This document shows, piece by piece, positions 7,430-61,017 of a stretch of 64,000 nt of DNA (its first letter is position 1; each line of letters starts with the position of its first letter). This DNA comes from Balanoglossus misakiensis (Eukaryota > Animalia > Hemichordata): assembly GCA_040954595.2 (NCBI GenBank), contig CM082587.2, forward strand, positions 8,049,705-8,113,704, in the 5' to 3' direction. The notes under the pieces were generated by a model that was not told the DNA's origin, ran no database searches, and worked only from the letters and a program-made list of their open reading frames with translations. The translations under genes were made by a program, and so were the position numbers.

Positions 7430-7631
7430 AATAGAAAATCTATTGACGGCTAGTTCAATGGAAATCATCTGTATAATTCTATAGAAAATAATATTCTATT
7501 TATTTTCTGTTGAAAATTAATAGAAGTCATCTGTAGAATTCTATAGAAAATAAATTTCTATTGATTTTCTATTGAATTCTACACGTTTCTATAGAGGTCT
7601 ATAGAGTTCTATAGAACCTTTTTCGTAAGGG
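7430..7631 (-). mobile_element. Probable terminus of a CMC/EnSpm-like DNA transposon with subterminal repeats
   Basis: Multiple (T)CTATAGAAAAT repeats in both orientations ending in TTTTCGTAAGGG (reverse complement CCCTTACGAAAA); partner end not found. Confidence 0.45.
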
Positions 7632-10140
7632 ACATGGCCACGGACACTTCCGGCATAGTGACTGATCCGCTGCAATGGCAGAATGGAGACGTTTTGACCG
7701 GAACGGTTGATGTCGGGAGATTGGCATTCACTGATGAACCGGCAGCTGACAGGGTTGGTTGATGGCTAGTTGATACCAATTGGCATCCACCACAGATTGA
7801 TGCCATTTTACTAAGAAACACATGTTTATAATAATAAGTCTTTATTACAGACAACCAAGTTTCCATACCAGTTATTTTTAGACATTTGAAATGATACCAC
7901 TGACTACATTGGTCACATGCTACACCAGTCCTGACTGTGCGACTGCATACTCCACATGGCCATGGAGACTTCCGGCGCTTTGACTGAACTGTTGAAGTGT
8001 CAGAGTTGATACGTTTTGACCGTGTTGGTTGATGGCTGGTTGATGTCGGGAGATTGGCATCCACTGATGAACCGGCAGCTGCAGTTGAGCCCGCTTGTGG
8101 TGACCGAGGTGGGTCGGAGTGTGGTTGAGGATGTAGTGGATCATGGGTAGTTGCATTGGATGTTGTACATTGTACTTGAACTTCTTGAATTATTGCTGGG
8201 ATGACATGTTGAATGTAGAAAGAGTCCAGGTTCGCTTTAACTTTTGCCCAGAAAGATTCGTTGAATGTCACTGGAATGATGATCAGTCCTTTGGTAGTGA
8301 ACACAACACAGTCACAGAGATGAACACCTGTTTCTGCCATTTGTACTTGAATCTGTGTATAATATTGGTGACTCTGAGATAATACGTAATGTCCTTGATC
8401 GTTGGTCTTTATATACGGAATGTCAGTTCCTGCAGCTTCTTGTGGGGACCTCTCTCTTGCTGTGAATGGACACTTGCACTCCAGGATTCGGGGCTCACAA
8501 CAATCACATGATACATTTCTGTCGGCTGACGCTCCTACGTGTGCATTTCCTGGGGCAACTTTCAACCCACATCGCTTTACGACCAGATTTTCTGTGGTGC
8601 TGCGACATGGCTTCTGTGTACCTTTCTACTGCTTCATCCTCTTTGTCCCGCCCCCATCTGATGGCTGGTGGAGGATTGGTGTGATACCACTGACTGCATT
8701 GGTCATATGCTACACCTGCAGTCCTGACTGTGCGACTACATACATGTATTCCACATGGCCATGGAGACTTCCTACGCTTTGACTGAAGTGTCAGAGTTGA
8801 TACGTTTTGACCGTGTTGGTTGATGGCTAGCTGATGTCGGGAGATTGGCATTCTCTGATGAACTGGCAGCTGCAGTTGAGCCCGCTTGTGGTGAGGTGGG
8901 TCGGAGTGTGGTTGAGGTTGTAGAGAAAGGGTGAGGTTGTAGGGGTTCATGGGTAGTTGCACTGGATGTTGTAGCCTGAACTTCTTGAATTATTGCTGGG
9001 ATGACATGTTGAATGTAGAAAGAGTCCAGGTTCGCTTTAACTTTGCCCCAAAATGATATGTTAAATGTCACTGGAATGATACGTCCCTTTGTAGTGTACC
9101 GGTACACAACTAAGTCAGAGATGAACACCTAGCACTAATAGTACAGCATTTTGCATGAAAATAGCAAGGAACGGACACTTTCTCACTGTTCTGCGAGAAC
9201 CATGCAAGAACAGATCCTCCCAATGAACACATTGTCATCTCTTTTGATGGCCACCACAGATGATAATGTACAATGACTCTTCCATCAGCTGAGGCACCAA
9301 TGTGAGAGTCTCCTGGACGAACTGACAATTAAGCCACTGTCCGCTGTACAACTAAATTTTTATGGCATGATGACATTGACTATAATGTATCTCTCAACAG
9401 CTATGTCTTCATTCTGTCTTCCCATCGTATTGGTGGTGGTGGATTTTTGTCGTTTATTTTGGAGTGTCGATCCTTTCATTGCATTCATGATTGTTCTGCA
9501 GGGGGTGTCTGACCTCTTCTCTCCATGAAGCGGTGAACAGCATGTATCTTTGATGCTGTCAATCTGTGTTGTCTGCGCTGTCAGGCATCAGCGCTACTCT
9601 GTTGCAGGCCGATGTTGTTGAGACCGCTGATGCTTGTTCAGAATCCATACTCTGTCGGATATTGTCTCAGAAAGTTCGGGGTGTGTCATCAGGTCATTTT
9701 CAGCCATGCATCTAAAGCCGCCACTTCAGTTACTGTTTCTGGATTTCTGGTACTGGTTGCCTCTTCAGGGAATTCTTCACATTCATGCTGTCTCTACTTC
9801 AACCTCATCAGACAATGCATCATGGGTTATTCCTGGACTGGGGTCAGCAAGGGCGGGGATCAAATGCACAAAAGATAGTGTCCCACACTTCCTGAGGATC
9901 AATCTCTGGATCACTTGGCAGGGCAGGTCTGAAGGGTACTTAGTCTATCTTGCCATGTTTTGGATGGTGTAAATCAATTTCATCCACAGTACCAGGCTCA
10001 GTCTTCTCTGAGTAGAAGTCATTCCAGGCGCATGGGAGGTCTGTACATGTATTTGGTTGGTTAACACCCAATTCCGTTGCACTTACTATTTTAAATAGTA
10101 ATGCACCAATATGGGTACATGCTTCACCCAACCTGTAACA
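7609..10140 (-). mobile_element. SWIM zinc finger - YqaJ/lambda-exonuclease - PHD finger gene (ISL2EU-type accessory ORF), partly duplicated and pseudogenised
   Basis: LGEACTHIGALLFKI...CTDLPCAWN (SWIM region); RLTAS, GASAD, ILECKCP, HQYYTQIQVQM (YqaJ); CGVC...VACDQCSQWYHFKC (PHD); second frameshifted YqaJ-PHD copy at ~8685-9600. Confidence 0.82.
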
Positions 10141-11456: not shown

Positions 11457-13996
11457 GGCGGAAGCTATACGCACGGTGTTTTTTGGTAGATTTTTTTTGG
11501 AGAATTGAAATAGATCGGCTATGACTTACTACCGGGGTAGAAAATAAACAGCTCACTGATGATTACTCGGTTTTTAATTAAACTAGAAGTGAAGCTTTAT
11601 GACAGGATGTAGATGGAATGCGAATTGCTTAATTTGGGAATTAGCATTCTCAAGTTCGTATAAAATAAACACTGAGTCACTAATTGTTCGCTGGAGTTTA
11701 TGATAGTCGGAAGCAGTTGTGCAAACATTTCACAAATACTTTTACAAAGATGTCGCAAGAAAACCGTGCATGTTTTCAAAGAGTCACATAATTGCACCCC
11801 GACTTTTGATTGTTCTGCGCTAATCGGTATCAATTAACACCAAGTGTCCCAACTACGGAATTATTCAATAGACAGCGTTTTTCGCTGAACAAGACAACTT
11901 CGACCCGATCAGACGTGAATTTGTGTTGCTCCGATTCCGTGCCCAAAACAAAATATTGATTACGTTTTCACTGATGTAAAAATAAACCACACGCAACCAT
12001 ACACATGTATTTAATATATTTATTTAAAAACCTATGAACTAAGTAAAAAAGAACTTAACAAAAACATAATAAAATTAAAAGTCAGTTAAAAGTCATGAAA
12101 AATAAAAGTAAAAACAAAACAGCTGAATGATTCCTCGCCCTGACTACTCTACCCTAACCCTAAGAAAAACACAATAAAATTAAATGTCGCCCTGACTACT
12201 CTAATCCCCCCCTTGAAATTTATTTTTGAATTCGGCCAGCGCCTTCTCTGCCATTTTCTTCTTTTGGCTGTTTTTGGCTTTTTCTGTCAGGTACTCGTGG
12301 AAACTGTTCTTTATTCCAGTGGGCACAAAGTTAATCTATAATGTAATCTTTTGCCACGATGTGTGAACACAGTGAATATTCTGGTCCCAGTCCAGAAAAT
12401 TTAAAATAACGTCCAAATGATTGGTCAACCGTAATTCATGTTTATAGTCAAAATAGTCCTACCTGAGTACCCTTGTTTTTTCTCAACCATAAAAAAATGA
12501 AAGTAGGCGTTTTGGGCCGGCGTCAGCTTCCCGCTTACACTGGATACGTAATGCCTTTCCAGGCGGTCCTTCAGGTCGTCGTCATCTATATCGTCCAGTG
12601 TGTTTGGCACCTACAAATTGGTCAACCGTAATTCATGTTTATAGTCAAAATAGTCCTACCTGAGTAGCCTTTATTCTTGTCAATCATAAAAAAATGAAAA
12701 TATGCGTTTTGGGCAGGCGTCAACTTTCCTCCGCTCACGCTGGACACATAATGCCTTTCCAGGCGGTCCTTTAGGTCTTCGTCGTTGATGTCTTCCAATG
12801 TGTTTGGAACCTTGGGTGGTGCCGACGTGGAAGGCAGGATGGAGCGAAAGACATTGGAGAACTTCTTCTTTTTTGGGGGCTCCGGTATGTCGTCGTCGCT
12901 TTCCGGCGCTGCCGCAGCCCGTTTTGATGCCTGGGCCTGAAGTTGATCAATCAGGCCCTCCATCTTCTCCATTTTTTCCTCCATTTTCTGCATCCTTTCC
13001 TTCATTTCTTTCAATGTGTCCACAGTAAACTCTTTCAGAACGTCAAAGGACGTGGTCATTTCCATATGGAAATCGTCAAATTGGTCTTCTTGGTAAGCCT
13101 GAAATCAAAAATATATACCACCAAAATTAAAAAGTAACCTTCACAGAAAAAAAATATCAATGATATAACATTATTAATTTGTTTACTCACCATTGTAAGA
13201 ACGGATAAAACTGGTAGATAGTATAAAACTGGAAAAAAAAATTCTGAAATCTGAAATGGGAAAAACGGTAGTATTCAACAATTAATCTCTTTAAGTCTAC
13301 ACAAAATGTAGTAAACTATCGTTAACGCGAAAGTTGGCGCTGAAGAAATTCACACGTCATCATATCAGAGTTAAGTTTTTCTCAGTGGATTCTGAAGTCT
13401 TTCACGTCGCATCAAATGAGCATCTATGTACTGTAAAAGGTGAAGTTCAGGCGAACAATAAACTAAGCGACAGCCAAATAAATGCAAAAATCAAAGATCG
13501 CGTAATTTTTGTATCAGTTGCCCGGTTTACATGCAAGCTGAAAAATTCAAATGGTCAACAAAATACAAAAATAAGATGTAAGTCTTTACCTTGGATACAC
13601 CCATGCGCACAACAGAACGGATAGGAGCTGACTGAAGTCTCAACTGTAAACACTAACCCTAAGAATGCATGATGCCAATTTGCATGGCAAAGCCACAGGA
13701 AAATATTGTGTCCAATCATAGCACACGGAGTTGTTTACCATTCCAAAGTTAGACTAGCCCAATAGTCGGACGGCCCGTTTCCCGTTACGTAACAGCCTAA
13801 CCCTGACCTTTGCCCTGACCGTCCGCTTATAGTATGCCGAATTGTCCGTTTATATACGTTCGGCATACACGCGACGGTTTCACCAACGGCGGAAGCTATA
13901 CGCACAGTGTTTTTGGGGTAGATTTTTTTTGGGGGGGGGGGGGGGGGGGCGAGGAAGAATTGAAATAGATCGGGGTAGAAAATAAAGAGCTCACTG
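11457..13996. repeat. Pair of ~100-bp direct repeats (11457-11558 and 13888-13996) enclosing a 2.3-kb unit
   Basis: GGCGGAAGCTATACGCAC...AGAATTGAAATAGATCGG...GGGGTAGAAAATAAA.AGCTCACTG present in both copies. Confidence 0.85.
12622..13193 (-). CDS. Orphan two-exon gene, ~159 aa, coiled-coil plus NLS; C-terminal part tandemly duplicated at 12425-12612
   Basis: ATG|GTGAGT at 13193-13185; acceptor TTTCAG|GCT at 13099 gives MAYQEDQFDDFHMEMTTSF...; heptad MKERMQKMEEKMEKMEGLIDQLQ; PPKKKK. Confidence 0.6.
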
Positions 13997-13999
13997 TTG

Positions 14000-15573
14000 G
14001 ACAACCTCAACCGACAGCTCTTCTTTCTTGACCCGCAGCTCTTCATTTTCCTGACAAAGGTTATGGAGTTGTTATTGCTTTAAACTCTCTCCTTGTGACT
14101 TGATTGCTGTCGCTGACTGACATCTGTTGACACTTGCTGCATATTCAATACTCCTCCTGGTCAGAGGGTCGCTTCAGTTTCTTGCTAAAGTGCTGCAGCA
14201 CGGCCTTGGTGGAATGCCATTAATGTCTTGCCCACTTCCAGCTGGGTGTTGAATTGCATTTTGATGTTCTCCATCTTGTTGACATGTTCTCTGAATTGGC
14301 TGTGCAACTTTGTTGGCCAGACTGTCGGTAGAAATTCCTCTTTGTAGGTTACTGCCATGTTGTTGGGTTCTTGTACCGGTGAAAGCCAACTCAACTGCCA
14401 AATTATGGAAGCACAGACCTGTGCTCAGACATGAACAAACAGCTGGCTCAGGGTACAAAGTGATTATATGTACCGGTACTCTGTTGCTAATGACACTTCG
14501 CACCGTAAATGATTTCGTCTGAGGTGACAACCCATTTATGCAGCTGGTCTCCACAGCCAAATTTGCCAGGGACATTTGGGACATGCGGTAGTTTTGTCCT
14601 CTTTCAACTTTTCCGGCAGAGATTAGGAGATTCTCCCTTGGTGTGCTGAATAATACTCACAATTGGCCAAAAATTTGGAAGGTCAACATAACCAACGTTC
14701 AGCCTTCCTCATTGCTTCAAACTCTGGCTTCAGATCGTAAAGCCGAAACCTTTAGATAGTGGGAGATTTGTATCTTTAACAAAAAGTCCCAGTATTTCCT
14801 TGGTTCCTGAGGCCAGCTCCTTCTGTGCTATTATGATTAACAGGTGTGGTATTTTCCAGATAAAGTCGTCGTGGTGCAGTGCCAGTTCATAAAGACTGAA
14901 TATTTCATTGTTTGTTATTTTTCTTTCTTTTCTGGCTGCATGAACTGTGTTTGCAACCTGCTTCAGATCTCTTGGTCTGTGACCACTTGCTGGCATTCTT
15001 TCTTGAAATTGATCATCTTGAGCTTTCTGGCTCTGCTTTTGTTTGTAGATATTGATAGGCTCTCTACCACTGTCAGCTTTGCCTCTTTAATCATGATATC
15101 ACACTTTTACAGGAATGAATGGTTAGTTGTTTACTTGCCTATCACCATGTTTGGAATCGTTGGCAAGCGTGTGATCACCAAGATAATGCAGGAGATAGTA
15201 GAGCTGTCAACGTCTTTGGCCAATTTTATTGGCTTAGAAGCAATACACTGGCTGCTTGAAACCTGACAAAGAGTCCTTCTTCCCATTAGGGTCCTTGAGA
15301 TAATAGTACCTCTTTAAAATGGCAGCCAGTGCCCACCTCTTCCACTGTCACCTATGGACACCCATCGATATTGGTCAAATCTGGAGTCCATGGCCATTTC
15401 TTCTTTATTTCGTTTTTGACCTGTACATGTACACTCTTCCCCTTTGGTTTGACAGCGCCGGGCTCGTTCATGATGTTTTCGTTATCATTCTGAGAGCCAA
15501 GAATGTCCTCAACCTTGCTCAAGGAGAAGTCTCTCTGCCTATCATTAATAAAATGTGTATTTGTAAGTGACAT
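14000..15573 (-). mobile_element. Mutator/MULE-like transposase pseudogene with internal deletion
   Basis: HYLGD...KHGD...PF and PRDLKQVAN N-terminal motifs; C-terminal SWIM CSCLSTGLCFH; DDE core largely missing; frameshifts. Confidence 0.65.
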
Positions 15574-16669
15574 CTGAAAAAAAATTACAGTCGTGTTAAA
15601 TAAAACCTATTTATGGAAACATTTAGAAGCGTTTACAACATTTGCTTTTTTACTGTCGTTGCAAGGAGGTGCTGAATGTGGTGAACGGACAAATGAGACA
15701 ACACTCTGACATGAAGTTAGGGTGGCCGGTAGTGTGGTGTTATGGCAGCCGATGTAATGTTTGGGTATTTTGACCACATAGAATGTCACATTTGAGATCA
15801 TTTCGATAACCCACCTCGAATCTGGTCTTCTTCTGTTTGACGTTTTCGAGAACGTCGGTGTCCCCGAGACGACTCAAGAGGTTTCGTACTAGCGCTGGGG
15901 CATCCATGAACGTTGTGAGATGGATAGAAAGATCGCATCTCCCCCCACTTTCCACATGCCCCATCATGAAACCAAGGGCGAGATTTATTTTAAATTGATG
16001 GGTTTAGTGCCTATATATTATATCCAGATAACATATGATTGTAAATCTGTAAGGTGATATCCGCCTGCTGTTTGAAAATTGTACACATCCAGCATGGGAT
16101 TTCCTAAACGGTGGCAGGACCTGATGTGTAACAAGTTTTTCACTGTATGTTGGTGCAATGTCTCCATCGTCGACACTGTCCAACACAGGCTCAAAAAGAT
16201 CAACCGAAAGAACGCCGCTGTTGCTTGGCTGACCACCACCACCAATCTGTGGTTCTATGCTTCCTTCAGCAACATCATCATCATGTCATCATTGCCATCA
16301 TCCTCTCATGGTGACTATGACTATGTTTCTTCAGTGCCTTGAATGATTTGAAAACTCGTTTGCACACTTGCACATCTGAAAGACACTGAGACAGACAGCT
16401 TTTTGTGTATTTTCAAATGGCTGACATGATGTGATTTTCTGTTGAACACCATGTCACAGATAGTGCATTTGTATTGGGTGTCCTGACGATGATGTACATT
16501 CCATGTTGTCCTTTTGGGAGAAGGTGCGGTCACAACTTGGACACTGAAACTGTTGACTATAACGTATCATTTCATTTTCGCCACCACCGTTACCTGTACT
16601 TTTGACATCATGTACTTTCTTCTCGTGTCTTGCCAAGTTGTCCTTGCGTGTAAAAGTAAAAGGCTCTCT

Positions 16670-16915
16670 ACCTGATACAGGTGCGAGGCTGCCCAGGGTA
16701 TGAAACCAAACATTTCTCGAGCCTAATAACTGACGGAATATTCTTTCTAAGTCTCATGCGATATTGCCGGGTCCCGTTGAAAACAGAGGGCTCGTCGTTA
16801 AACACGCACTTCCGTGTCGCCAGCACCGTACCATACCCCGACAGAATGTGCTGGACAAAGTTATCGTCCAGCTCATTATCGATGGAAAGAGCCGTTAAAA
16901 TAAGTTGTCCCGTAC
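16670..16915 (-). mobile_element. Tx1/L1-type ORF1 (ZCCHC3-like gag) fragment
   Basis: ELDDNFVQHILSGYGTV...FNGTRQYRMRLRKNIPS...VSYPGQPRTC, truncated at the first Cys of the zinc knuckle. Confidence 0.75.
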
Positions 16916-17709
16916 GTAGTTTGAGATCTCCAGGTCGTGTCTTGCGAGATCAAAGACAACAATCTTCTCCTTATTATAAGCATATGAGACGTCCTTACTA
17001 GCAGTTGTATCGGCCCAAAATGCATTATGCACGCACCGTAACCCTTGAGCCTGTTTCCCTGTTCATCAACGATGAACATTATCTGGCGGTCGTTCTGATT
17101 CTGCAACTGCTCAAATGCTTCTCTCCGCCAAGGTCTTAAAGGCTTTCCTCTGGAATTTGGCCTTCTTTGCTTCCAGGGTCTTTCTCTGGACTATATTGTC
17201 TGCGAAGTGTTGCACTTTGTTCTGGTATAAATAATAATGCTCCCCATGCTTCTCTACAAGTTGATCCTCATCAAGGTCAGGGTTGCTAAGTCCTTGATCA
17301 ATCAATCAAAAACATTTATATGGCGCCAATATCCAGAGAACTGTTCAGTGGCGACCAACTGGACTAGGTCTCTTCTTTGGCCGGGTTTGATGGACGTACC
17401 CTATTCCTGGAAATCACCGCCTTTACTGCAGAATTTTCGGTTGTCTACCGGACTGCAACGGGCCACTTCGCTTTGGCGCTTCAGTTGCAAGTACTGCCCT
17501 TGTAGGTGAGGTACTTGCTTGTTCTCGCCGACTTCCTTGCCTATGATGAGATACTGCAGCTTGTTTAGGTTGGCTAGTATAGCGTCGTACTCTTCCTGGG
17601 TCCAGTTATTCAGCATAAAACAAAAGCTCTTCCCGCGAACGTCTGGTCTTCTTCGGTACTGGCCGTATTCTCTTGGGAAGCCATCTCGAGTTGTTGGTTC
17701 AGCGTTCAA
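16915..17709 (-). pseudogene. rep: Endogenous CRESS DNA virus replication initiator (HUH endonuclease + SF3 helicase), decayed
   Basis: Motif I FCFMLNN, motif II IGKEVGE...PHLQG, motif III NRKFCSKGGDFQE*G, GQRRDL, LRPW...QNDRQIMFIVDEQGNRLKG (degenerate Walker A), AYNKEKIVVFDLAR (Walker B); premature TAG at 17401-17403 and frameshifts. Confidence 0.92.
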
Positions 17710-17802
17710 TTAGATATGAAGTGGTGCGCTCACAACATTATGCGCGGTTGAGCGTACGTATAGTGTACATTGTAATGCAAATTAGAGGTCAAACGTGAGG
17801 TG

Positions 17803-17845
17803 GCCACAGGTCAGGTGTGGGCTACAATTACCCCACACCTGTGGC
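17803..17845 (+). promoter_or_regulatory. CRESS-type rolling-circle origin stem-loop
   Basis: Perfect 10-bp stem CAGGTGTGGG (17812-17821) / CCCACACCTG (17832-17841), extendable by GCCA/TGGC; loop CTACAATTAC with nonamer TACAATTAC (1 mismatch to NANTATTAC); AGGT repeats just upstream; ~100 bp from the rep start. Confidence 0.82.
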
Positions 17846-20519
17846 AAGGGCTAGCGTGACAATGCCCGCCGTGCCCATTGCCCCCGATTCTTTTGTTTAC
17901 GGCTTTACTATTGGTCTGTAGCCTATCCTTTGGAGTGTTGTCCTCTTCTTCCCGCTTGTCTGTATGCTTGTCATCTTCTAGTTCTAAGGTATCGTCACCG
18001 TCTTCGGCGCCAAACCACATAGGATCTCCCCCGTCCACGAAGTCTTGTTCGAAGTGCCATCGAATTTTCTTGGCATGTCCTTGCGTGTAAAAGTCTTACA
18101 GCAACTGGCACACGACAGGCAGTTTTCACCATGGACGCTGTTGATATGGCGACATAAATCACCTGGTCTGGTAAATGTGCGAGTACAGTGGGGGCACGTT
18201 GATCGGCCTGCATCATTTTGCTCACCCTCTTCATGGACACCCAGGCGATTGGTGGTCTCACGAAGGTCCTGCAGATAAAATAGAGGATACATGTATACAC
18301 AATATCGGAAAAATTTGAACAAAAACATGGCGAAAAGTAACAACTCACCTCAGATAATGAGTACTTTGCCAAAGATGAAGACATAGGCTGTAGAGCTGAA
18401 AGAATACAAAATTATTCTATAGTTATACATACAATTTGTGTACATACAATTTTCCTGTCCATCTACTGGTGAATGTTTTAAAGGTAAACTAGTCTGCTTG
18501 GTGGACTTAGAAATGCTTAAATAATTGCACAGAGTTCTACGAAAACAAATTTAAAATTAATAATTGGATAAGAAGAGTTCAATACTTAAACACACTTCTT
18601 GTATATTTGATTATGCAAAGAAATGACACAGACACATGTGAGTTTGGCTTAAATGTGCCCGGGGGGGGGGGGGATGAGCTCACCTCTGACTGAGTGTTGT
18701 GGCAGGTCTGGGATGACACATGGTACTCAAGGAGAGCCAGCCACCACAGAGGCACCAGCCCAGACGTCATGGCAGTTGCCCTCCAAGACACAAGCCACCT
18801 GTTTGGCTTGGGCTGTGGAAGGTGTGCGTGTTAACCAGCTGGTATCTGCATGCACTGTAGTGACAACCCCAAGCTCCTTAATTTGATTTACTTCATAACA
18901 GCACGAAACAGTATACATAGGTGTGGGTGGGTGGGAGAAGATTGCTGCTTACTCGTCACTGCCACGTGGTAAAAGGAGTGAGTGGTCTCTGTCAGGCCTA
19001 CAGGAGACTTCGGTAACAGTAAATAAATACACTTGATGAAAGTTCTTGTCCGTGTCACTTCCCACATTAACACTATCTATACTAATGTATAATCGTAATA
19101 TTAAAATTACCCTTGTGTGTTAATAACTGAACTGGCAACTTTAACATTGTACACACATGACCATTGGCAAAGGGTATGATTGCTTCTCGTGCACAGTTGT
19201 CAACTCCAAACACCCTGTAATATGAATTTATAGCACATGTGAAAGATTTCAAGAATGATCAATGTGTGTCATAAATTTATCTGTGTGTATCATCTTAGTC
19301 TAGAATCTATCCGTTCGTAGTCGCATTCACCCTACTACCGTCTTGGAACGCCTAACCAAAATCTAGTAAGGCCATAAAAATGGTAATTTGAATGTGAATA
19401 GTCTCCAACTGAGCATTAATTCTTGACGATTTTTGTCTGACACTACAATTGTTTAAAAGAATACAATTACGTTGGCATCGTCGAAAGTAGATATCACTGT
19501 GCTATACCTACGTGTACAAGAAATTAGGCCAGAGGGTATATGGGTGGGTTTTTTGTAGGCACATTAAGAAAACACATCATTGTAACAGTATACGCATGAC
19601 CACTGGTGTATTCAGCTGATTGCTGATCAATTATTTTCGCCGCAGAGAAAATTCAAATGAGTATCCTGGTTGTATCGCATCAACTAATCAGAGTTATGTT
19701 TCAAACACCTAACACGTGTCCGCAAAAATAGGAATGTACACCGGCTATTTACAGACTGTCCAGTCAGCTGATGTCAAATGAATGAAGGAAGGAAGGAATG
19801 TATGAATGAATGAACGCATCTACAACGCACGCAAAAAGGAATGAAATAATACATGGGTGGATTCTTCACAAGTTGACATACGTGGCGTCTCTTCATAAAC
19901 CGTGTAAACATGTCAGACATACCGTATGTTAGTTATGAGTGAAGTGATCATTGTAAATGGAAAGATATTATTGATATTTGCGTATGTTTACCAATGCAGA
20001 GATTTCAGTGCCATGTAGCCCAACATTTGAAAGCATCTGACGTATTTTTATCCTGTGACACGTTTCCAAAGCCCCACTCTACCATCATTGTTCTGGTAGA
20101 GAGACGTGGCATGGATATGGTGGGAGTCATTATTTTTCACGGATGGTTTATGCCGTCAGTGGGATTCTGTCCAACGCCCACGATGTTCTGGAATTTCTCT
20201 TAGTAACGCAAAGTTATTCTGTGCAAAACGTACATTGGTGTTTCTTTTCTGTTAAAGAATCATGCATCAATTCAAAAGGTGACGTTTTCTCCGGAAAGAT
20301 TGGTCGTATAAAATGATTTTTCAATTACAGAATCTTTGACACAGCTTAGGAAGCATATCACACATAAAGCCAATATCTGAAATGGTGACTTCACTTGTGC
20401 GTGGTGCCCACATGGTTTTACCCCATAAATTAAAAGTGAAAAATTGGGACATAATGTATCTCAGTGGGCGATGATCTTAGTCCGATCAGGCGTTCCCTAA
20501 TTAGATAAAGACAGGACAT

Positions 20520-20577: not shown

Positions 20578-23500
20578 ATGAAGGTAATTTTGCTGACGAT
20601 TTTCCTTGTTTGCATGTGTTTGGTTCAGGCATTGTCTCCCCATGAGCAGAAGAAGGCCATCCGTCAATTTTTCGGTAAGATATCAAAATAATATCACGTA
20701 TACATGGTAAAAAATTTATGTCGAATAATTTTCCGTAGTCCACTGAGATACCGGTAGTTCTGACATTCACTGCGGAAACACCAACACAAAAATGTGCAAC
20801 TTTCGTACAATTATTATTATTATTATATTATAAACTTTATTTCGGACTCATGGTCCATTTTACAGTAGGACTAATTAGTTGAAAGGGAAAAAAAATTACA
20901 TATATATCTAAATGACAAAAAGAAGCTTATTCCAAAGGCTCAAAGTGTCAGAATTAAAATACAATGTATCATGCACTTGCCGCACAATGACATTTTGGCA
21001 GTTATGTATTTGAAGATATTGCCAAGTACAATTTCTTGTGCGCAAATACTTCCTCTCCCATTCTTTTATTATCAAAATAGGCCCATGGGGGTTACAGCAG
21101 TATGGAAAGAAACAAGTAGGAGGTAAGGGAACGTGACAATTATCCACTGTTGGGAATTAACATCAGCAGGATGGTTTTGGGAAATGGCACTTAACACACA
21201 CACACAGAATTGTAATACATATATTGAGAGAAGATCTATCCTATCTAACATCAGAATCAACATTAATATTTAATATAATTATATAATCCCATAACATTTT
21301 TCTTTATTTAACGTCTTCAAGTTAATAAGACAAATACATTGCTAACACCTGTAAATGTGTACTGGTATCGTAGGCAGAACTGGCTTTATGGCAGCAGAAA
21401 TGTGTCAGTGCCGGTAGAATTATATTTGCTTTGCTTGTGTGCGTGTGTTTGGTTCGGCCATTCATCTTCATGGAGGTAAATTGCATGAAACGATAACATT
21501 AATAATCTTCGCTGCCTTTAAAATGACTATGATACCGGTAGATCGGGGATAATAGATTCTTCATAAAACTACACGTAATTATTATGAAAGTAGTCAAGCT
21601 GACAATCAATAACCATATGCTTTCATGTGGTGTCAAATAAACTATGTCTTACTATCAGTTAATTACGGTGGCCGATACCAACACTGCTCTGCTAATTATA
21701 CCTGCTCTGCTGTCGACCTGCTCTGCTATGCTAAGTCGACCTCCTCTGCTAACTTAATCTGCTCTGCTAAGTCAACCTCCTCTGCTAACTAAGATAGAAA
21801 GTTCAGACAGCGTCAGTCTGATAGTTACGAAATTAATTATTAAAACGTTCGTCGGCCTGTATAAAAAAGATAGCATATGATGCTTATATATACCTACTTT
21901 TGTACCAAAGAAAACTATGAATAAAGATACCAACCTGTTTCAGGTACTTCGAGCACCACATGGAACCCTGTGAGGCAACGCCTCGATGTAGTCAATTTCC
22001 CCCCTCTTAGGATAAGAACACCAACACTAGCCTACAACATGCAAAACCAAAGAGAATGCAGTTAGTTAATCATGGAATCCAGACTTAAACATTTAACTAA
22101 ACCAACATTATTCTGTGTCCTTCTCTACCCTAAAGTAACATTAGTGATACATTTGTCTTATAAATGATGTTTTAATGAGATGTTTTAGATACCGAAAAGG
22201 GATAACAGTTGTCCAAAGAACATTTGCATAACAGCAACAAGTAAGCAAATTTCTATTTTAAAATTGTGTTAACATATGATGCTAACATTTATTCTAGTGT
22301 TAAAATAATAGTAGAAAAAAATACATACAACAAAAACTGAGCAACATTTTAATTTTGATTATGTAGGAATGTGTAGTCCCATGGTTCAAAATATACAAAA
22401 GGATCTAAAAATAATCAAGGCACTTTCTATCTCACTTTATAACAGGTAAAATATTTGTTAACTTATTTTTCATGCAAAAAACAATGAACATCATGCAGGT
22501 AAATTAAACTTATTATATTCATTAGCCATGCATGCAGTTGGAAAAGCAATAATCATGAACAGAACACAGGGACCAAAGCATACTTTGACAGTTTGAGGTG
22601 GCTTCTTTCTCCTGGTATTTATTTTTTTAATCTCCAAAAATGTCCCTGTAAAAAAAAACAGTGGACATGAGCTTTATGAACCTACTTTACCACATTACTC
22701 ATCTCGTGACCACATTCGTGAAAATCGCGTCAAGGACACGGTGGGTGAGTTTTGACCAATTCCACATTTTCGCAGCTAAATTGCATATTTTTGGTAATTA
22801 CAACTTCATTTGAACAAAATCCCATCTGCAGCCACGCATAAATCAGCACACCAAATATCGAGGTGATACGCTAAGTGGTTTTCAAGTTTTTGATGTGGAT
22901 GGACATACACACATCCATACAGTCACAACCGATCCCATAATGTCCTATGGTATTAAATATACATATACCAAATGGGACCCAAAAACAGTTGTATACCTCT
23001 TCTTTTTCCCTTTCCTTCCCCTTTTCATATTGACTGGTTTACCGATACTTCTGAGCCAGAGACTTTCTTTGTTTCAATTCAAGGTTACCTAAACCAGACA
23101 CTTTTTTTTTCTCAAAATGGACAGTTTACTTACAAATCAGATGTGGTTACTGAACATGTGTTCTTAATTAATATAGAAAATGTGTATCTGTTTCTGTTAA
23201 AGACAGCATACTTACTATTTTGTCTAACTGGCAAAGGCGGCGTTGGTGGTGTGGGCGTCAACAGTTCCTCCCCCAAGTACTTCACGAAGTTTGCTGGGAA
23301 TGACCCAGCAAACTCCCTATCTCTCACTTTACCAATAAGCCATCCTCTTGGTTGTTGAGGGGTACCATGGAACTTCCATGGTAACCCCTCAACTTCAATG
23401 ATATCATCAGTTTTCATAGATATTTCACTACTGCTCTCTGCCATAAAAGTATGGCATACTCTGTACAGGAACATTATTTTCTGTTGGGAGATGAATAAAG

Positions 23501-26500
23501 ACATAAGACAACTTACAAGTCACAGAAACAGAGTGATCCATTAGTTTCATGACTTGATTATAATTATGCTTGGTGTGAATCCTGCTTGCTGATTGGCAAG
23601 AGCCAGGGTTTATATTCTCGACAAAAAAAATTGACCAAGAACAGTGAATAATTATAAAAAATGGAACACATACAAGAGATCACACCTTACTGGATGTGGG
23701 ATAACATGGATAAAGTCGTGCGACTTTAGAAATTCTATAACACTTCGCTCGGTGATTATTTCCCGCCAAATATACTAATTTTCACGTGAGAGGTCCTGCA
23801 CCCAAATACCCTCTGGCAGCCGTTTAACCTCTAAATATAACGTTTAGCCAATAGTCAGTCTAAGAAAAAAGACTCCTTGAAAAATCTTTCACGATATTTA
23901 TTTCATCATATTGGGCTGAACGGATCAGCAAATTTCCACAGAAAATGACGGGCAGCTACAGGCAGTAATTAGTAGGACCGCAAATAAAGTTTTGATTTCA
24001 AGGATTGGAAAGTGGGGAAACAATTGCCTCTAATTGCAGACGTTGTCGCCGCCTACAAAATCCGTATCTTTGAAACAAAATTTTATGGATAAGATATTCA
24101 TATATTATTTCTATTATCGCTTACAGCTTTCTCCGTTCGCCCAAATCAGTGTTCAAACTTCAGCAAGTCCGGCCGCATGTGAGACGAGCGTATGTTTGTT
24201 CGTAAGAAATGTACTCCAGTACTTCCGGTTAACTCAGCAGAGCAGGTCGACTTAGCATAGCAGAGCAGGTTGACAGCAGAGCAGGTATAGTTAGCAGAGC
24301 AGTGTCGGTATGGGCCACCGTAGTTAATACATGCTGACATTAATACCAAACTTCTGCAGATTATCAAACGTTTGCACCAGAAGAAACTTCTATTATCTTC
24401 TATTAATAACAATTGATGATCTATTTTCTTTCTTTCTAGATTGTTATTGTACTTGTAAGTATTACTCTGCATATTTTTTTTCAATTTCGAAAGTTTTCTG
24501 TGTCCATGTATGCACATAAAATAACTGGCACATCGTGCGATAGCAGCCGACGCTGGACTTAGAGATGGGTCAAGAGATGATGATTTAATTAGACACACAA
24601 TGTAAATTGCTCACTCAGTTAATACAAATTTCAACACATGATCAATTTTTAAACGAGGTGAACCTGGTATTAGCTATGTTTCATCTGCTCAGTCTCTACA
24701 GATCCGTGGTATGACGGAAAGTATTATTGTGCACAAAATAACTTTTAAATATATGCAATGTATGTATGGGAATTCTAAATGACAAAGTATAATTGAATAT
24801 AAATGAAAGTTGTATCCCTTTGTTTCATTATACCCTGTAGTATATTATAAAGTAGGGTAATGTGATAAACCATTGAATTGATTATTATTACTTTCAGTCA
24901 ACAAAGTTTTGCTTGGTTGGTTGGTTCACTATGTAATTTAGTTTCAATTCAACTTTGTTTTTATAATCAGCTGAAGAAGGCGACATTCGCTTGGTAGGCG
25001 GTTCGTCCGAGACAGAAGGCCGCGTCGAAATCTATCATCAAAATGAGTGGGGTACAGTTTGCGATGACGCCTTCGAAAACATTGATGCAGTCGTGGTGTG
25101 TCGTCAACTTGGCTACACGTAAGCTTATTTTTTATTTATATAGCACAGAAATTGACATCATCTGAATATAACGAGAACATTTGAGGAGTGGTTTATTTTC
25201 TTCGTTCTTACGCCTTGTTTCTGTCTTTCAATTGGCTTGCTGGCAAATGTATCATACAGGACCGGCAGCCTCAGACGAGATGACACTCACCTTTTAAGTA
25301 CACGGCCACTGTCAGACACGTTATGTTTCTTTTGATTTACAGGGGAGGTAGTAGTCTGCCAAGTGCATCTTTTGGACAAGGAACGGGCCAAATATGGCTA
25401 GATGATATTGGATGTAGCGGGAGTGAGAGCAGCCTAAGTGACTGTACACATCCTGAATGGGGAACTCACAACTGCCAGCATAGTGAAGATGTCGGAGTTT
25501 CATGTGAAGGTATTTACTTTTTGTTAACAATATTTTTGAAGTAATATCATCTTGTGTAACAGGCAGTAATGCAATGTGGTAACTTTATAGCTTATTCGTA
25601 TTTACTTTTTACAAAATGCTAATGAACCATAACAAGTATCTATAACGTCTTCTTCTCTTAAATTATTTTTATTTACAGTAGGCAGTCCATCAACAGGTAA
25701 GATATCCAAATTGAATGTGTAGCATTTCAATGTGTCATGGTCTGAACGAAACAGCGTCAGCAAAGAAGTTGCGAATTGTTCAAATGAATGTGATATTTTC
25801 ATCAAAAATTCAAGCCTATTTAAAAAAAAAGCTTTTTCCAGATCTTATTATATAAGTTAAATTAATCATTAATCCTTTTGGTCATCAAAGTTTTTTTTCG
25901 GTGGTGTACTGTTGTTTAGTTACAATTCAGTTTTCAATTGGCTTTTTAAAATCAGCTGAAGAAGGCGACATTCGTTTGGTGGGAGGTTCGTCCGAGACAG
26001 AAGGCCGCGTCGAAATCTATCATCAATATCAGTGGGGTACAGTTTGTGATGACTACTTTGAAGACATTGATGCAGTTGTGGTGTGTCGTCAACTTGGCTA
26101 CACGTAAGCTTGTTTTTTATTTGAATAGCACAGAAATTGACATCTTCTTAATATAACGAGAACATTAGAGAAGTAGTTTATTTTCTATGTTCTTGCCCCT
26201 TGTTTTCTGTCTTTTTATTAAAAATTTTCCCAGGTGAATACCTTTGGTGAAACCTGTTAATAATACACAGACAATCATGAAAATATACGTGCAACCTGCG
26301 GAGACAATGTTAACGTGACATTTGTCAATTTTGATTAAACTCGGTAGAATATAACTTTGTCTACGATGACATATGATTCAGATGGCGTATTTCCATCTGT
26401 ACAGTGAGACCCTGCCAAACGATATCGAATTAACTTGAAAAGATGATACATCATATTTGCTAAGGTGTGAATTGTAATGTAACAAACGTTATGATCAATG

Positions 26501-29500
26501 ATGTATATTTAGAAGTTATAAACAGCTAACCGCAGTCGCAGACAGGATTAGACTCTCGTTTTAAGTACACACAGAAATGTCACAGCCACTGTCAGACACG
26601 TTATGTCCATTTTATTTACAGGGGAGGTAGTAGTCTGTCAAGTGCATATTTTGGACAAGGATCGGGCCAAATATGGCTAGATGATATTGGATGTAGCGGG
26701 AGTGAGAGCAGCCTAAGTGACTGTACACATCCTGAATGGGGAACTCACAACTGCCAGCATAGTGAAGATGTCGGAGTTTCATGTGAAGGTATTTAGAGTT
26801 TGTTTACCGGTATAATAGTTTTGAAGTAATATCATCTTGTGTATCAGGCGATAATGCAATGTGGTAACTTTATAGCTTATTCTTATTTACTTTTTACAAA
26901 ATGCTAATGAACCATAAATAGTATTTTATAACGTCTTCTTCTCTTAAATTATTTTTATTTACAGTAGGCAGTCCGTCAACAGGTAAGACAATTCTTCATA
27001 TATGTTTTATCCAAATTGATTGTGTGGCATTTCCATGTTTTATGTTCTGAACGAAACAGTGTCCGCAAAAAAGTTGCGAATTTTTTGTAAATTTACGTTA
27101 ATTAATGTAATATTTTCATCAAAAATACGAGCCTATTTAAAAACAAGAACATTTCCATGATCTTATTATATAAGTTAAATTGATTATGATTACTTTCGGT
27201 CTTTGAAGTTTTGCTTGGTTGGTGTACTGTGTTATTTAGATTCAATTCAGTTTTCAATTGGCTTTTTAAAATCAGCTGAAGAAGGCGACATTCGCTTGGT
27301 GGGAGGTTCTTCCGAGACAGAAGGCCGCGTCGAAATCTATCATCAATATCAGTGGGGTACAGTTTGTGATGACGCCTTTGAAAACATTGATGCAGTCGTG
27401 GTGTGTCGTCAACTTGGCTACACGTAAGCTTATTTTGTATTTGAATAGCACAGAAATTGGCATTTGAGAAGTAGTTTATTTTCTTAGTTCTTACGCCTTG
27501 TTTTCTTTCCTGAATGAATTGAATACCTTTGGTGAAAACTTGTTAATAATACACAAACAAATATGAAAATATACTGACACTAGTAAGACAATACTAACCA
27601 CATGAAATTGGTCAATTTGAATCAAACTTGTTACAATATAACTTTTATCATTGAAGACGAAGTCCTAACAAAATCATTCAGTCCGTGTGTTTCCAACACT
27701 ACAGGGAGATACTGGCAAAAATATCGAAATAACTTTAAAATATGATACATCTCATTGTTTGCCATGGGTTATAAAAATAAACAAACATATTGCTCAATAT
27801 GTGTATTGTATAGCAGTTAAAATGTGTGTATACATATGTAGGCTTGCCATAGCAACTGTGTCATACAAGAAGCACAGTCGCAGACGAGATGACACTCACC
27901 TTTTAATCAAACACAGAAATGTCACAGCCACTGTCAGACACTTTAAGTTCATTTTACAGGGGAGGTAGTAGTCTGTCAAGTGCATCTTTCGGACAAGGAA
28001 CGGGCCAAATATGGCTAGATGATATTGGATGTAGCGGGAGTGAGAGCAGCCTAAGTGACTGTACACATCCTGAATGGGGAACTCACAACTGTCAGCATAG
28101 TGTAGATGTCGGAGTTTCATGTGAAGGTATTTAGTTTTTGTTGATAATAGTTTTGAAGTAATATCTTGTGCAACAGGCGATAATGCAATGTGGTAACTTT
28201 ATAGCTTATTCTTATTTACTTTTTACAAAATGCTAATGAACCATAACGAGTATTTTATAACGTCTTCTCCTCTTAAATTATTTTTATTTACAGTAGGCAG
28301 TCCATCATCAGGTAAGATATCCAAATTGATTGTGTGGCATTTCAATGTGTCATGGTCTGAACGAAACAGCGTCAGCAACGAAGTTGCGAATTGTTCAAAT
28401 GAATGTGATATTTTCATCAAAAATTCAAGCCTATTTTAAAAAAAAGCTTTTTCCAGATCGTATTATATAAGTTAAATTAATCATTAATCCTTTTGGTCAT
28501 CGAAGTTTTTTTTTGGTGGTGTACTGTTGTTTAGTTACAATTCAGTTTTCAATTGGCTTTTTAAAATCAGCTGAAGAAGGCGACATTCGTTTGGTGGGAG
28601 GTTCGTCCGAGACAGAAGGCCGCGTCGAAATCTATCATCAATATCAGTGGGGTACAGTTTGCGATGACTTCTTTGAAGACATTGATGCAGTTGTGGTGTG
28701 TCGTCAACTTGGCTACACGTAAGCTTATTTTTTATTTGAATAGCACACAAATTGACATTTGAGAAGAAGTATATTTTCTTAGTTCTTACACCTTGTTTTC
28801 TTTCCTGAATGAATACCTTTGGTGAAAACTTGTTAATAACACACAAACAATTATGAAAATATACTGACACTAGTGAAACAATACTAACCACATGAAATTG
28901 GTCAATTTGAATTAATTTTGTTACAATATAACTTTTATCATTGAAGACATAAGTCCTAACGCAATAATTCAGTTGGCATGTTTCCAACACAGGGAGATAC
29001 TGGCAAACAATATCAAAATAACTTGAAAATAGGATACATCTCATTGTTTGCCATGGTTAATAAAAATATACAAACGTATTGCTCAATATGTGTATTGTAT
29101 AGCAGTTAAAATGTGTGTATACATATACACATGTAGGCTTGCCATAGCAACTGTGTCATACAAGAAGCACAGTCGCAGACGGGATGAGACTCGCCTTTTA
29201 AGTACACACAGAAATGTCACAGCCACTGTCAGACACGTTATGTTCATTTTATTTACAGGGGAGGTAGTAGTCTGTCAAGTGCATCTTTTGGACAAGGAAC
29301 GGGCCAAATATGGCTAGATGTTATTGGATGTAGCGGTAGTGAGAGCAGCCTAAGTGACTGTACACATCCTGAATGGGGAACTCACAACTGCCAGCATAGT
29401 GAAGATGTCGGAGTTTCATGTGAAGGTATTTAGTTTTTGTTAACAATAGTTTTGAAGTAATATTTTGTGCAACAGGCGATAATGCAATGAGGTAACTTTA

Positions 29501-32500
29501 CAGCGTATTCTTATTTACTTTTTACAAAATGCTAATGAACCATAACGAGTATTTTATAACGTCTTCTTCTCTTAAATTTTGATTTACATTAGGCAGTAAT
29601 ATCTTGTGCAACAGGCGATAATGCAATGAGGTAACTTTACAGCGTATTCTTATTTACTTTTTACAAAATGCTAATGAACCATAACGAGTATTTTATGACG
29701 TCTTCTTCTCTTAAATTATTTTTATTTACAGTAGGCAGTCCATCAACAGGTAAGATATCCAAATTGATTGTGTGGCATTTCAATGTGTCATGGTCTGAAC
29801 GAAACAGCGTCAGCAACGAAGTTGCGAATTGTTCAAATGAATGTGATATTTTCATCAAAAATTCAAGCCTATTTAAAAAAAAGCTTTTTCCAGATCTTAT
29901 TATATAAGTTAAATTAATCATTAATCCTTTTGGTCATCGAAGTTTTTTTCGGTGGTGTACTGTTGTTTAGTTACAATTCAGTTTTCAATTGGCTTTTTAA
30001 AATCAGCTGAAGAAGGCGACATTCGTTTGGTGGGAGGTTCGTCCGAGACAGAAGGCCGCGTCGAAATCTATCATCAAAATGAGTGGGGTACAGTTTGTGA
30101 TGACTACTTTGAAGACATTGATGCAGTTGTGGTGTGTCGTCAACTTGGCTACACGTAAGCTTATTTTTTATTTGAATAGCACAGAAATTGACATCATCTG
30201 AATATAACGAGAACATTTGAGAACTAGTTTTTTTTCTTAGTTCTTACGCCTTGTTTCTGTCTTTTTATTACTACTTTCCTAAACGAATACCTTTGGTGAA
30301 AACTTGTTAATAATAGACAGACAATTATGATAATATACAGACACTAGCGAGACACTACTAACCCCATGACATTTGTTAACTTCGATTAAACTCTTTACAA
30401 TATAACTTTTGTCTTTGATAACATATGCACTAACAAAATTATTCGGTTTGCATGTTTCCAACTGTACAGGGAGACACTCTCAAACTATATCCAAATTACA
30501 TGAAAATATGATACATCTCATTGTTTGCCATGGTATGCATTTTAATATATATAAACAAACACATTGGTCAATGATGTATATTGTATAGGAGTTGAAATTT
30601 GTGCATACCTAGGCTTTCTGTAACAACTGTGTCATACAGGAACCATAGTATCAGACGGGATAAGACTCGCCTTCTAAGTACACACAGAAATGTCACAGCC
30701 ACTGTCAGACACGTTATGTTCATTTTATTTACAGGGGAGGTAGTAGTCTGTCAAGTGCATATTTTGGACAAGGATCGGGCCAAATATGGCTAGATGATAT
30801 TGGATGTAGCGGGAGTGAGAGCAGCCTAAGTGACTGTACACATCCTGAATGGGGAACTCACAACTGCCAGCATAGTGAAGATGTCGGAGTTTCATGTGAA
30901 GGTATTTAATTTTTGTTAACAATATTTTTGAAATGATATCATCTTGTGTAATAGGCGATACTGCAATGTGATAACCGTAAGGCGTATTCGTATTTACTTT
31001 TTACGAAATTCTAATGCACCATGATGAGTATTTTCTAACGCAATCTTCTCTTAAATTTTGATTTACATTAGGCAGTCCGTCGACAGGTAATATATCTTCA
31101 TATATGTTCTATCCAAATTGACTGTGTGGCATTTTCTAAAGGAAACAAGCCAGAAAAAAAGCTGGAATTTTTGGAAATTCATGTCGATGAATGTAATATT
31201 TCCATCAAAAATACGAGCCTATTTAAAAAACAACCGCATTTCCATGATCTTATTACATAAGTTAAATTGATCATGATTACTTTCAGTCAACGAAGTTTTG
31301 CTTGGTTGGTGTACTGTATCATTTGTTTTCAACTAAGCTGTGTTTTTATAATCAGCTGAAGAAGGCGACATTCGCTTGGTAGGCGGTTCGTTCGAGACAG
31401 AAGGCCGCGTCGAAATCTATCATCAAAATGAGTGGGGTACAGTTTGTGATGACTACTTTGAAGACATTGATGCAGTCGTGGTGTGTCGTCAACTTGGCTA
31501 CACGTAAGCTTATTTTGTATTTGAATAGCACAGAAATTGACATCTTCTTAATATAACGAGAACATAAGAGAAGTAGTTTATTTTCTATATTCTTGCCCCT
31601 TGTTTTCAGTCTTTTTATTAAAAATGTTCCCAGATGAATACCTTTGGTGAAACCTGTTAATAATACACAGACAATCATGAAAATATACGTGCACTAGCGG
31701 AGACAATGTTAACGTGACATTTGTCAACTTTGATTAAACTCGGTAGAATATAACTTTGTCTTCGATGACGTATGATTCAGATGGCGTATTTCCATCTGTA
31801 CAGTGAGACCCTGCCAAACGATATCGAATTAACTTGAAAAGATGATACATCATATTTGCTAAGGTGTGAATTGTAATGTAACAAACGTTATGATCAATGA
31901 TGTATATTTAGAAGTTATAAACAGCTAACCGCAGTTGCAGACGAGATGACACTCACGTTTTAAGTACACACACAAAGGTCATAGCCACTGTCAGACACGT
32001 TCCGTTAATTTTTCAGGGGAGGCAGTTTTCGGTCAAGTGCATATTTCGGACAAGGATCGGGCCAAATATGGCTAGATGATATTGGCTGTATAGGATGTGA
32101 GAGCAGCCTAAGTGACTGTACACATCCTGAATGGGGAACTCACAACTGCCAGCATAGTGAAGATGTCGGAGTTTCATGTGAAGGTATATACTTTCTGTTT
32201 TAATAGTTTTGAAATGATATATTGTTGGTAATAATTCTGTGTGCTGACTTTATAACTTATTCTTATTTACTTTTTAACAAAATGCTAATAAAAGGTATTG
32301 TTTTTAAATTCTGTTGATTTATAGGAGGCAGCCCGTAAACAGGTGAGATTAATCTTATTAATAAGCTAAGTATAGTAAACATTTAATTTGAATTTACAAT
32401 ATTATTTATGCCCAAAGACAGCATTTCTAGCCAGTTTTAGCAATCAAAGTTTAACTTAAAATAAATATCCAACTTGAGCATATTGCCAGCGTAAGTTAAT

Positions 32501-60500: not shown

Positions 60501-61017
60501 TCATACAGGGTTAACGTTTATTACATATAGGGTTAACTAATAACATATTTTTCATGTATAATTAACGTTATTTCATGTAGAATTAAAGTTTATTACCTAT
60601 AGGGTTAACGTTTATTACATATTGGGTTAGTATTACATATTGGGTTAAGGTGTTATTACATATTGGGTTAGTATTACATATTGGGTTAAGGTGTTATTAC
60701 ATATTGGGTTAGTATTACATATAGGGTTAATTATTACATATTGGGGTGATACAGTCGGTCTGGTTGCGCTGGTGACACTTTTCGTGCTCACCGTGGCGGC
60801 TGGCATAACCGCCGTGCTGTTGCTTGCTTCCAGCGACGATGAGGGCGCCGGATACACGTACTCCAGGGCGGCCGTGGCAGCTGACAATGGCCAGTGTTCC
60901 CAGGTGGGAAGGTATGGCAGTAAATGTACCATTAGCTTTTAAATTCGTATATTCAGAGACCACCATTTTAACGGTAATATACAAGGTTGGCTTAGAAAAG
61001 TCCCAGCAACTTAACAC

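Follow-up and report, generated by a model that had tools for sequence, protein, structure and literature searches.

How does the DNA of a circular single-stranded DNA virus come to lie inside an animal gene, joined to a piece of a retrotransposon? The route by which such viruses enter animal genomes is usually assumed, with end joining as the proposal for ssDNA-virus EVEs (PMC3205384), and the ends of the insertions are rarely readable. The locus analysed here is one where the target, its duplication and the two junctions can all be read, so that a mechanism can be tested. The window, by which we mean the whole 64-kb stretch of Balanoglossus misakiensis DNA that was analysed, consists of animal DNA and contains exons of REJ, immunoglobulin-like and gamma-glutamyltransferase type, as well as YqaJ and PHD domains at 7612-8625. 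Within it, 1418 bp intervene between two copies of a 19-mer. This insert is decayed, and in it the origin and rep of a CRESS virus are joined to a piece of LINE ORF1 (Table 1).

Table 1. Features of the insert and its target (positions in the window)
Feature	Position	Strand	Basis or remark
Target-site duplication copy 1, 19 bp	16639..16657	.	Exact repeat
Target-site duplication copy 2, 19 bp	18076..18094	.	Exact repeat; on the minus strand its last 5 nt would overlap with the incoming DNA
5' part of the target gene, with a complete C2H2 finger plus the N-half of the split one	18095..18268	-	Pfam zf-C2H2, E 1.3e-5
3' part of the target gene (pseudogene), with the C-half of the split finger plus more fingers over three frames	16300..16638	-	
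Decayed coding region downstream of the fingers	14200..15400	-	Probably Mutator-like transposase, from its motifs
Last 5 nt of the insert, which match duplication positions 2-6 and give the junction a 6-nt tandem repeat	16658..16662	-	
Piece of a LINE ORF1 (L1/Tx1-type), truncated on both sides, from the RRM-like region to the first zinc knuckle	16658..16898	-	
Broken CRESS rep with endonuclease motifs I-III, a linker and the helicase up to a little beyond Walker B	16916..17690	-	
Origin-like hairpin	17803..17845	+	Arms of 14 bp, complementary except for a 5-bp tandem duplication
Acidic open frame, 87 codons	17811..18075	-	Opens with G-H-A-K across the junction, consistent with an ORF1 continuation

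A 19-bp duplication in a broken zinc-finger gene

The initial annotation had described an exact 19-bp target-site duplication around the insert, and the present analysis confirms it. By direct sequence comparison the two copies are identical. They form the longest exact repeat within 15500-19500, a region in which all of 200 shuffles gave repeats of at most 14 nt. The same 19-mer could have been naturally shared between fingers, which would have removed the need for a duplication. This case was examined and does not apply: the next-best match within 16300-18300, located in the adjacent finger, reaches only 13/19, so the 19-mer is not a repeat naturally common to fingers.

On the minus strand the order is the N-half of a C2H2 finger (CASCCK), the 19-mer, the insert, the 19-mer again and the C-half of the finger (NLARHEKKVH), and Pfam zf-C2H2 was matched on both frames flanking the insert. 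An exact 19-mer at the two halves of one finger supports the earlier view of a single insertion with a true target-site duplication. That the insert splits a complete C2H2 finger is correct as far as the halves are concerned, which flank both copies, but the zinc-finger gene is itself frameshifted. It is a broken gene, with fingers in three frames, that leads into decayed coding sequence. The decayed region, probably a Mutator-like transposase by its motifs, gave no Pfam match in any of three frames. A splice-acceptor-like site in the sequence would mark the exon start of the 5' part of the target gene.

The viral part of the insert

The Rep encoded by the insert has homology to both an HUH endonuclease and an SF3 helicase, the combination that characterises CRESS-virus endogenous elements. 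Pfam Viral_Rep matched with an E of 1.6e-5, just under the curated cut-off, and a profile of 15 top Reps (294 positions) matched the insert over positions 5-240 in three stretches (iE 2e-26, 9e-15 and 4e-16). The gene carries three frame changes (near 17350-17275, 17160 and 17040) and a stop codon at 17401-17403, and from motif II to motif III it has lost about 14 codons. Phe occupies the position of the motif III tyrosine, while 18 of the 22 invariant residues are kept. The start of rep would lie near 17690. The contents first listed for the insert, an acidic ORF, an origin hairpin, rep and an ORF1 piece, are all present, but the rep is broken and without its last ~50 codons. A capsid gene was not found in the insert.

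The origin-like hairpin folds with a z of -3.5 on the minus strand and only -1.7 on the plus strand. Its loop holds a nonanucleotide-like sequence at 17823-17831, on the strand opposite rep, with one mismatch to the consensus NANTATTAC. With that one mismatch, an origin stem-loop with nonanucleotide is a second feature of CRESS-virus endogenous elements found here.

Relatives of the Rep are numerous. When one rep frame, its stops replaced by X, was used in a HMMER search, 1,337 proteins passed E<=0.001, and the best 150 of these were listed. Nine of the ten closest Reps looked up are encoded on contigs of 1.1-3.1 kb and one on a contig of 61.6 kb. Locus scans covered the best 80 of 489 and the best 80 of 342 relatives. 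Among 165 related loci, the closest three (L086, L037 and L030) are ambisense genomes of 2.1-2.5 kb with the nonanucleotide on the strand opposite rep. This is the minority polarity among the 165 loci (30 loci vs 100), and the hairpin of the insert shares it. The Rep of L086, an unclassified CRESS virus, is among the closest (P0003; 49% over the endonuclease part). Unlike the insert, all three genomes are intact and have a capsid gene, and they are without LINE or acidic frame. Circular relatives (n=104) have a median length of 2029 nt, compared to 1418 bp for the insert, and five of them, at 1.0-1.3 kb, carry rep only.

Two Rep queries, run in word-based searches of proteins, yielded no related protein among 31 and 33 candidates, and a viral-contig scan with the helicase piece yielded no relative. 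The sole match to the hairpin-arm pattern, locus L166, is without Rep or ORF1 and is due to chance.

The LINE part and the acidic frame

Judging from its sequence, the host part is a LINE ORF1 of L1/Tx1 type. Between 16898 and 16671, 38 of 78 residues (49%) are identical to a zf-CCHC protein of the sea urchin Lytechinus pictus (P0002), the one relative found among 112 candidates, which points to a marine invertebrate, probably an echinoderm or kin, as host. Of the element only an ORF1 piece is present, and it is by reverse transcriptase and endonuclease phylogeny that the Tx1 clade is told from other L1-group LINEs. In the Atlas, the piece scores 0.93 against a cluster in which 18% of the members carry RRM_1, and its neighbours are RRM, DUF4780, PRE_C2HC and zf-CCHC clusters. 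A viral-contig scan with the ORF1 piece found no relative. The boundary between ORF1 and rep falls somewhere in 16885-16915. The presence of rep and origin alongside a LINE ORF1 piece supports the earlier suggestion of a virus/retroelement chimera.

The acidic frame has no match in Pfam, the Atlas or the viral contigs, and its likeness to the acidic tail of the sea urchin protein is weak (19 of 300 shuffles were as good). Two other identities were tried. A permuted Rep C-terminus is rejected: the arginine-finger score of the frame, -7.4, lies below those of all 125 true tails, and its best tail alignment was equalled by 31 of 300 shuffles. Among 124 related Rep tails, 12 have at least 40 aa and 3 of those are acidic, and none matches. 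A rep-only (alphasatellite-like) circle, in which the whole rep closes on the origin and the acidic frame is the Rep C-terminus, does not fit either. As a second identity, the frame could shadow a capsid start that is rich in Arg and inverted, and twin priming would then be suggested. This is not supported, as 94 of 200 shuffles did as well as the best capsid alignment. A codon model favours the acidic frame by 9.5-12.4 log units; all 48 capsid starts score above the insert in this model, and the segment is atypical of both classes. The acidic frame is therefore probably not an inverted capsid start.

Junctions and the fit of the two ends

At the ORF1-end junction, the 6-nt tandem repeat would represent microhomology with slippage. 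The 5-nt match to the duplication at this junction has a null of 0.007 (200,000 random ends), and of 0.13 under a looser rule that accepts a match anywhere within ~25 nt and on either strand. Together with the overlap proposed within the other copy of the duplication, both junctions would show 5-nt overlaps with the target.

The two ends of the insert also seem to fit each other. Beyond the first knuckle cysteine the ORF1 piece continues for 22 nt, as C-I-R-stop-R-A-F, and the next residues required by a CxxCxxxxH knuckle are G-H. At the opposite junction, with the last 5 nt of the duplication included, a long open frame reads G-H-A-K, for which the sea urchin protein has G-H-E-A-K. G-H codons at one of the 7 admissible offsets have a chance of 0.011, or of 0.0035 in a given frame, and G-H-(x)-A-K occurs at 1 of 128,000 window positions, namely this junction. 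The two ends hence appear to be neighbours in the ORF1 frame, i.e. the order of the insert would be circularly permuted, a relation that was previously unnoticed. Neighbouring parent ends are the mark of an opened circle, and this leads to the circle reading.

The knuckle is imperfect, with a stop at the second cysteine, one spare base and A-K one codon early, and its last cysteine and the further knuckles are missing. The test of the fit was devised after the sequence had been seen and uses few letters. The case for a circular form is this end fit, with a chance of ~0.01 noticed post hoc. Furthermore, the insert begins with 7 nt that repeat the adjacent flank in inverted orientation (null 0.010), and such copying could account for them with no circle involved.

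Origin of the insert

We give a probability of about 0.5 to the following explanation: a virus-plus-LINE circle of ~1.4 kb, opened inside the ORF1 zinc knuckle, was copied into the zinc-finger gene by microhomology-guided synthesis that duplicated the target. The duplication and the parts, with their order and breaks, are seen in the sequence, and the steps that follow are proposed. Viral and LINE DNA would have recombined into a capsid-less circle, either in the course of an infection or when an older virus-LINE locus in the chromosome looped out. A free 3' end in the zinc-finger gene would then have annealed to the circle via 5 nt and been extended once round. The new end would have re-annealed via 4-5 nt at a site in the target some 18-19 nt upstream. 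A slip of 6 nt and further copying would then produce the duplication. Insert and target would have decayed afterwards, and the inserted copy is probably inert.

Further observations agree with a circle. There is no poly(A), the closest Reps are encoded on small contigs, and the three closest loci share the polarity of the hairpin. The implied virion strand is the strand that such a primer would copy, a 1-in-2 coincidence, and the size of the insert falls within the 1.24-1.57 kb range of geminivirus-host minicircles (PMC6293997). Besides the weak points of the knuckle fit and the inverted 7-mer, it counts against a circle that the acidic frame is only weakly like the tail of the sea urchin protein, that a single ORF1 relative was found, and that none of the 165 loci shows such a hybrid. 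As in hybrid virus-host minicircles, a viral origin is combined with host-derived DNA at subgenomic size. Decay and duplication indirectly favour a joining of insert and host DNA in the germ line. More tentatively, the insert may be the germ-line fossil of a hybrid minicircle from a CRESS infection of a marine invertebrate, which would have captured a LINE fragment, been propagated by a helper virus and been copied whole into the chromosome.

It is unlikely, though worth weighing, that a LINE reverse transcriptase made a linear chimera, by priming internally on ORF1 RNA at a target nick, jumping to viral RNA or DNA and ending in a duplication. Duplications of 19 bp are of the size made by LINEs, and a long target-site duplication is what canonical L1/Tx1 target-primed insertion leaves. 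ORF1 and rep lie on one strand, with ORF1 at the 3' end, as such a chimera would have them. RNA-virus EVEs made by LINEs, with duplications, have been described (Katzourakis & Gifford 2010, PMC2987831; PMC3205384). However, neither end of the insert has a poly(A) or other 3' tail (no A-run within the last 40-43 nt exceeds 1-2 nt) and the LINE part breaks off within ORF1, so the target-primed LINE insertion raised by the initial annotation does not fit in its canonical form. In addition, the copy would have passed through the origin and beyond, exceeding a rep mRNA, and the knuckle fit of both ends would be left to chance.

Next in rank, and doubtful, is the end joining of a linear piece of an older decayed virus-LINE locus, or of separate fragments, into a staggered break. 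The junction repeats would then be locally templated filler, in agreement with the inverted 7-mer at one junction (null 0.010) and the 5-nt direct match at the other, and the route is the usual proposal for ssDNA-virus EVEs (PMC3205384). A heavily broken rep between exact copies of the duplication also speaks for an older viral locus. Yet, an exact 19-mer still has a probability of 0.09-0.2 at 4-6% decay per copy, so that no two-step history is required, and G-H-A-K would have arisen by chance at the exact knuckle position. The same figures mean that the insertion is neither dated nor shown to be recent. To call it datable, as had been done, was too strong, because 19/19 identity only bounds the divergence between the copies to <14.6% (95%).

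An undescribed Rep-based mobile family in animals, Replitron- or Helitron-like, had also been put forward, and we consider it improbable. The insert does hold both origin and rep, rep-only circles of 1.0-1.3 kb exist among the circular relatives (5/104), multi-copy rep EVEs are reported from some invertebrates (PMC3198968), and Replitron-1 makes variable duplications (PMC10288648). On the other hand, no second copy of the insert is present within the 64-kb window, the origin is internal instead of terminal, and the rep is broken and truncated by the LINE piece. The insert retains remnants of a fused helicase, which the Reps of Replitrons are without (PMC10288648). No pairing of rep and ORF1 was seen in the 165 loci or in 356 proteins; as the locus scans covered the best 80 of 489 and the best 80 of 342 relatives, the missing hybrids are weak evidence. 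Finally, an assembly chimera or a natural repetition of the 19-mer between fingers is highly improbable, given that other fingers match it at 13/19 at most, that each copy adjoins, to the letter, one half of the same finger, and that the many rep lesions are unlike a contaminating live virus.

Implications

Whichever way it arose, the insert is real, and for a chimeric EVE it is unusually legible. If the circle reading is true, virus-host hybrid circles of animals would be a route for the viral movement of transposon DNA. If, more specifically, the insert is a minicircle fossil, animal CRESS viruses would pick up, carry and re-deposit host retrotransposon DNA, and the locus would show the integration step that is only predicted for plant minicircles. 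If the circle reading is false, a well-defined chimeric EVE in a dead gene remains, which is of modest interest.

Comparison with known systems

Degraded rep EVEs of animals are known, and several of them lie in genes or transposons of the host (Liu et al. 2011, PMC3198968). CRESS viruses are found in echinoderms (PMC5113903). Like the insert, the animal CRESS rep EVEs have a degraded rep and no capsid gene (PMC3198968, PMC2987831). The insert differs from them in its retained origin, the fused LINE ORF1 and the apparently permuted order. Target duplications are described for RNA-virus EVEs (PMC2987831, PMC3205384). An animal CRESS EVE with a target duplication, or a virus-LINE circle, was not found in open-access main texts, and the tables and figures of Liu et al. 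may hold such cases.

Replitrons share with the insert a CRESS-related HUH Rep and, in Replitron-1, variable duplications (Craig 2023, PMC10288648). They are without helicase, have short terminal direct repeats and are multi-copy (PMC10288648), none of which is shown for the insert.

The hybrid virus-host minicircles seen with Beet curly top Iran virus (Catoni et al. 2018, PMC6293997) are closer in build. They too measure 1.2-1.6 kb, combine the viral origin hairpin and flanking viral DNA with host DNA, and are capsid-less. They are plant minicircles, found in beet, and episomal, with integration only predicted, and their host part is AT-rich, non-coding and not transposon-derived. The insert, in contrast, is from an animal, carries a LINE-derived coding piece, keeps most of rep and is integrated, and its circularity is a proposed one.

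Insertions via circular DNA intermediates are large segmental duplications of host DNA only, with no viral origin (PMC7450558). What they have in common with the insert is a permuted order with only microhomologies or short indels at the junctions, and permuted order together with microhomologies is a published sign of circular intermediates (PMC7450558).

Repeats at and around the insert

Close to the boundary between rep and the LINE ORF1 fragment, the insert carries a 9-mer that also occurs, unchanged, in the target where the duplication ends. This match is probably due to chance, because Rep codons account for most of the 9-mer.

The partial duplicates of the YqaJ-PHD region, together with a 195-bp tandem duplication (86%), belong to the decayed transposon-like cluster surrounding the target. 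Further along, an inverted repeat encloses 2.7 kb, within which lies an exon that we take to be SH3-like; this arrangement is possibly that of a non-autonomous DNA transposon, or of short elements that lie as a pair. A tandem array begins at exons which are presumably SRCR-like. Approximately 1 kb apart and oppositely oriented, a pair of AT-rich tandem arrays resembles the long subterminal repeats of a single element.

Repeats and associated features, in window positions
Feature	Position	Length	Identity
9-mer shared with target	16903-16911	9 nt	identical
YqaJ-PHD partial duplicates and 195-bp tandem duplication	7600-9900; 12420-12812		70-82%; 86% (tandem duplication)
Inverted repeat arms	21659-21757; 24229-24327	99 bp	92%
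Enclosed exon	23130-23519		
Tandem array	24873-32356	units of ~1.3 kb	78-89%
AT-rich tandem arrays	58327-59193; 60271-60745		

Relatives of the Rep

Among the proteins related to the Rep of the insert, P0013, a close relative, is encoded on a contig of 61.6 kb and may itself represent a further endogenous copy. P0044 is 664 aa long, with Rep forming its C-terminal half. Five of the 104 circular relatives (L113, L130, L148, L151 and L155) are circles of 1024-1342 nt encoding only rep, and these are alphasatellite-like replicons in metagenomes.
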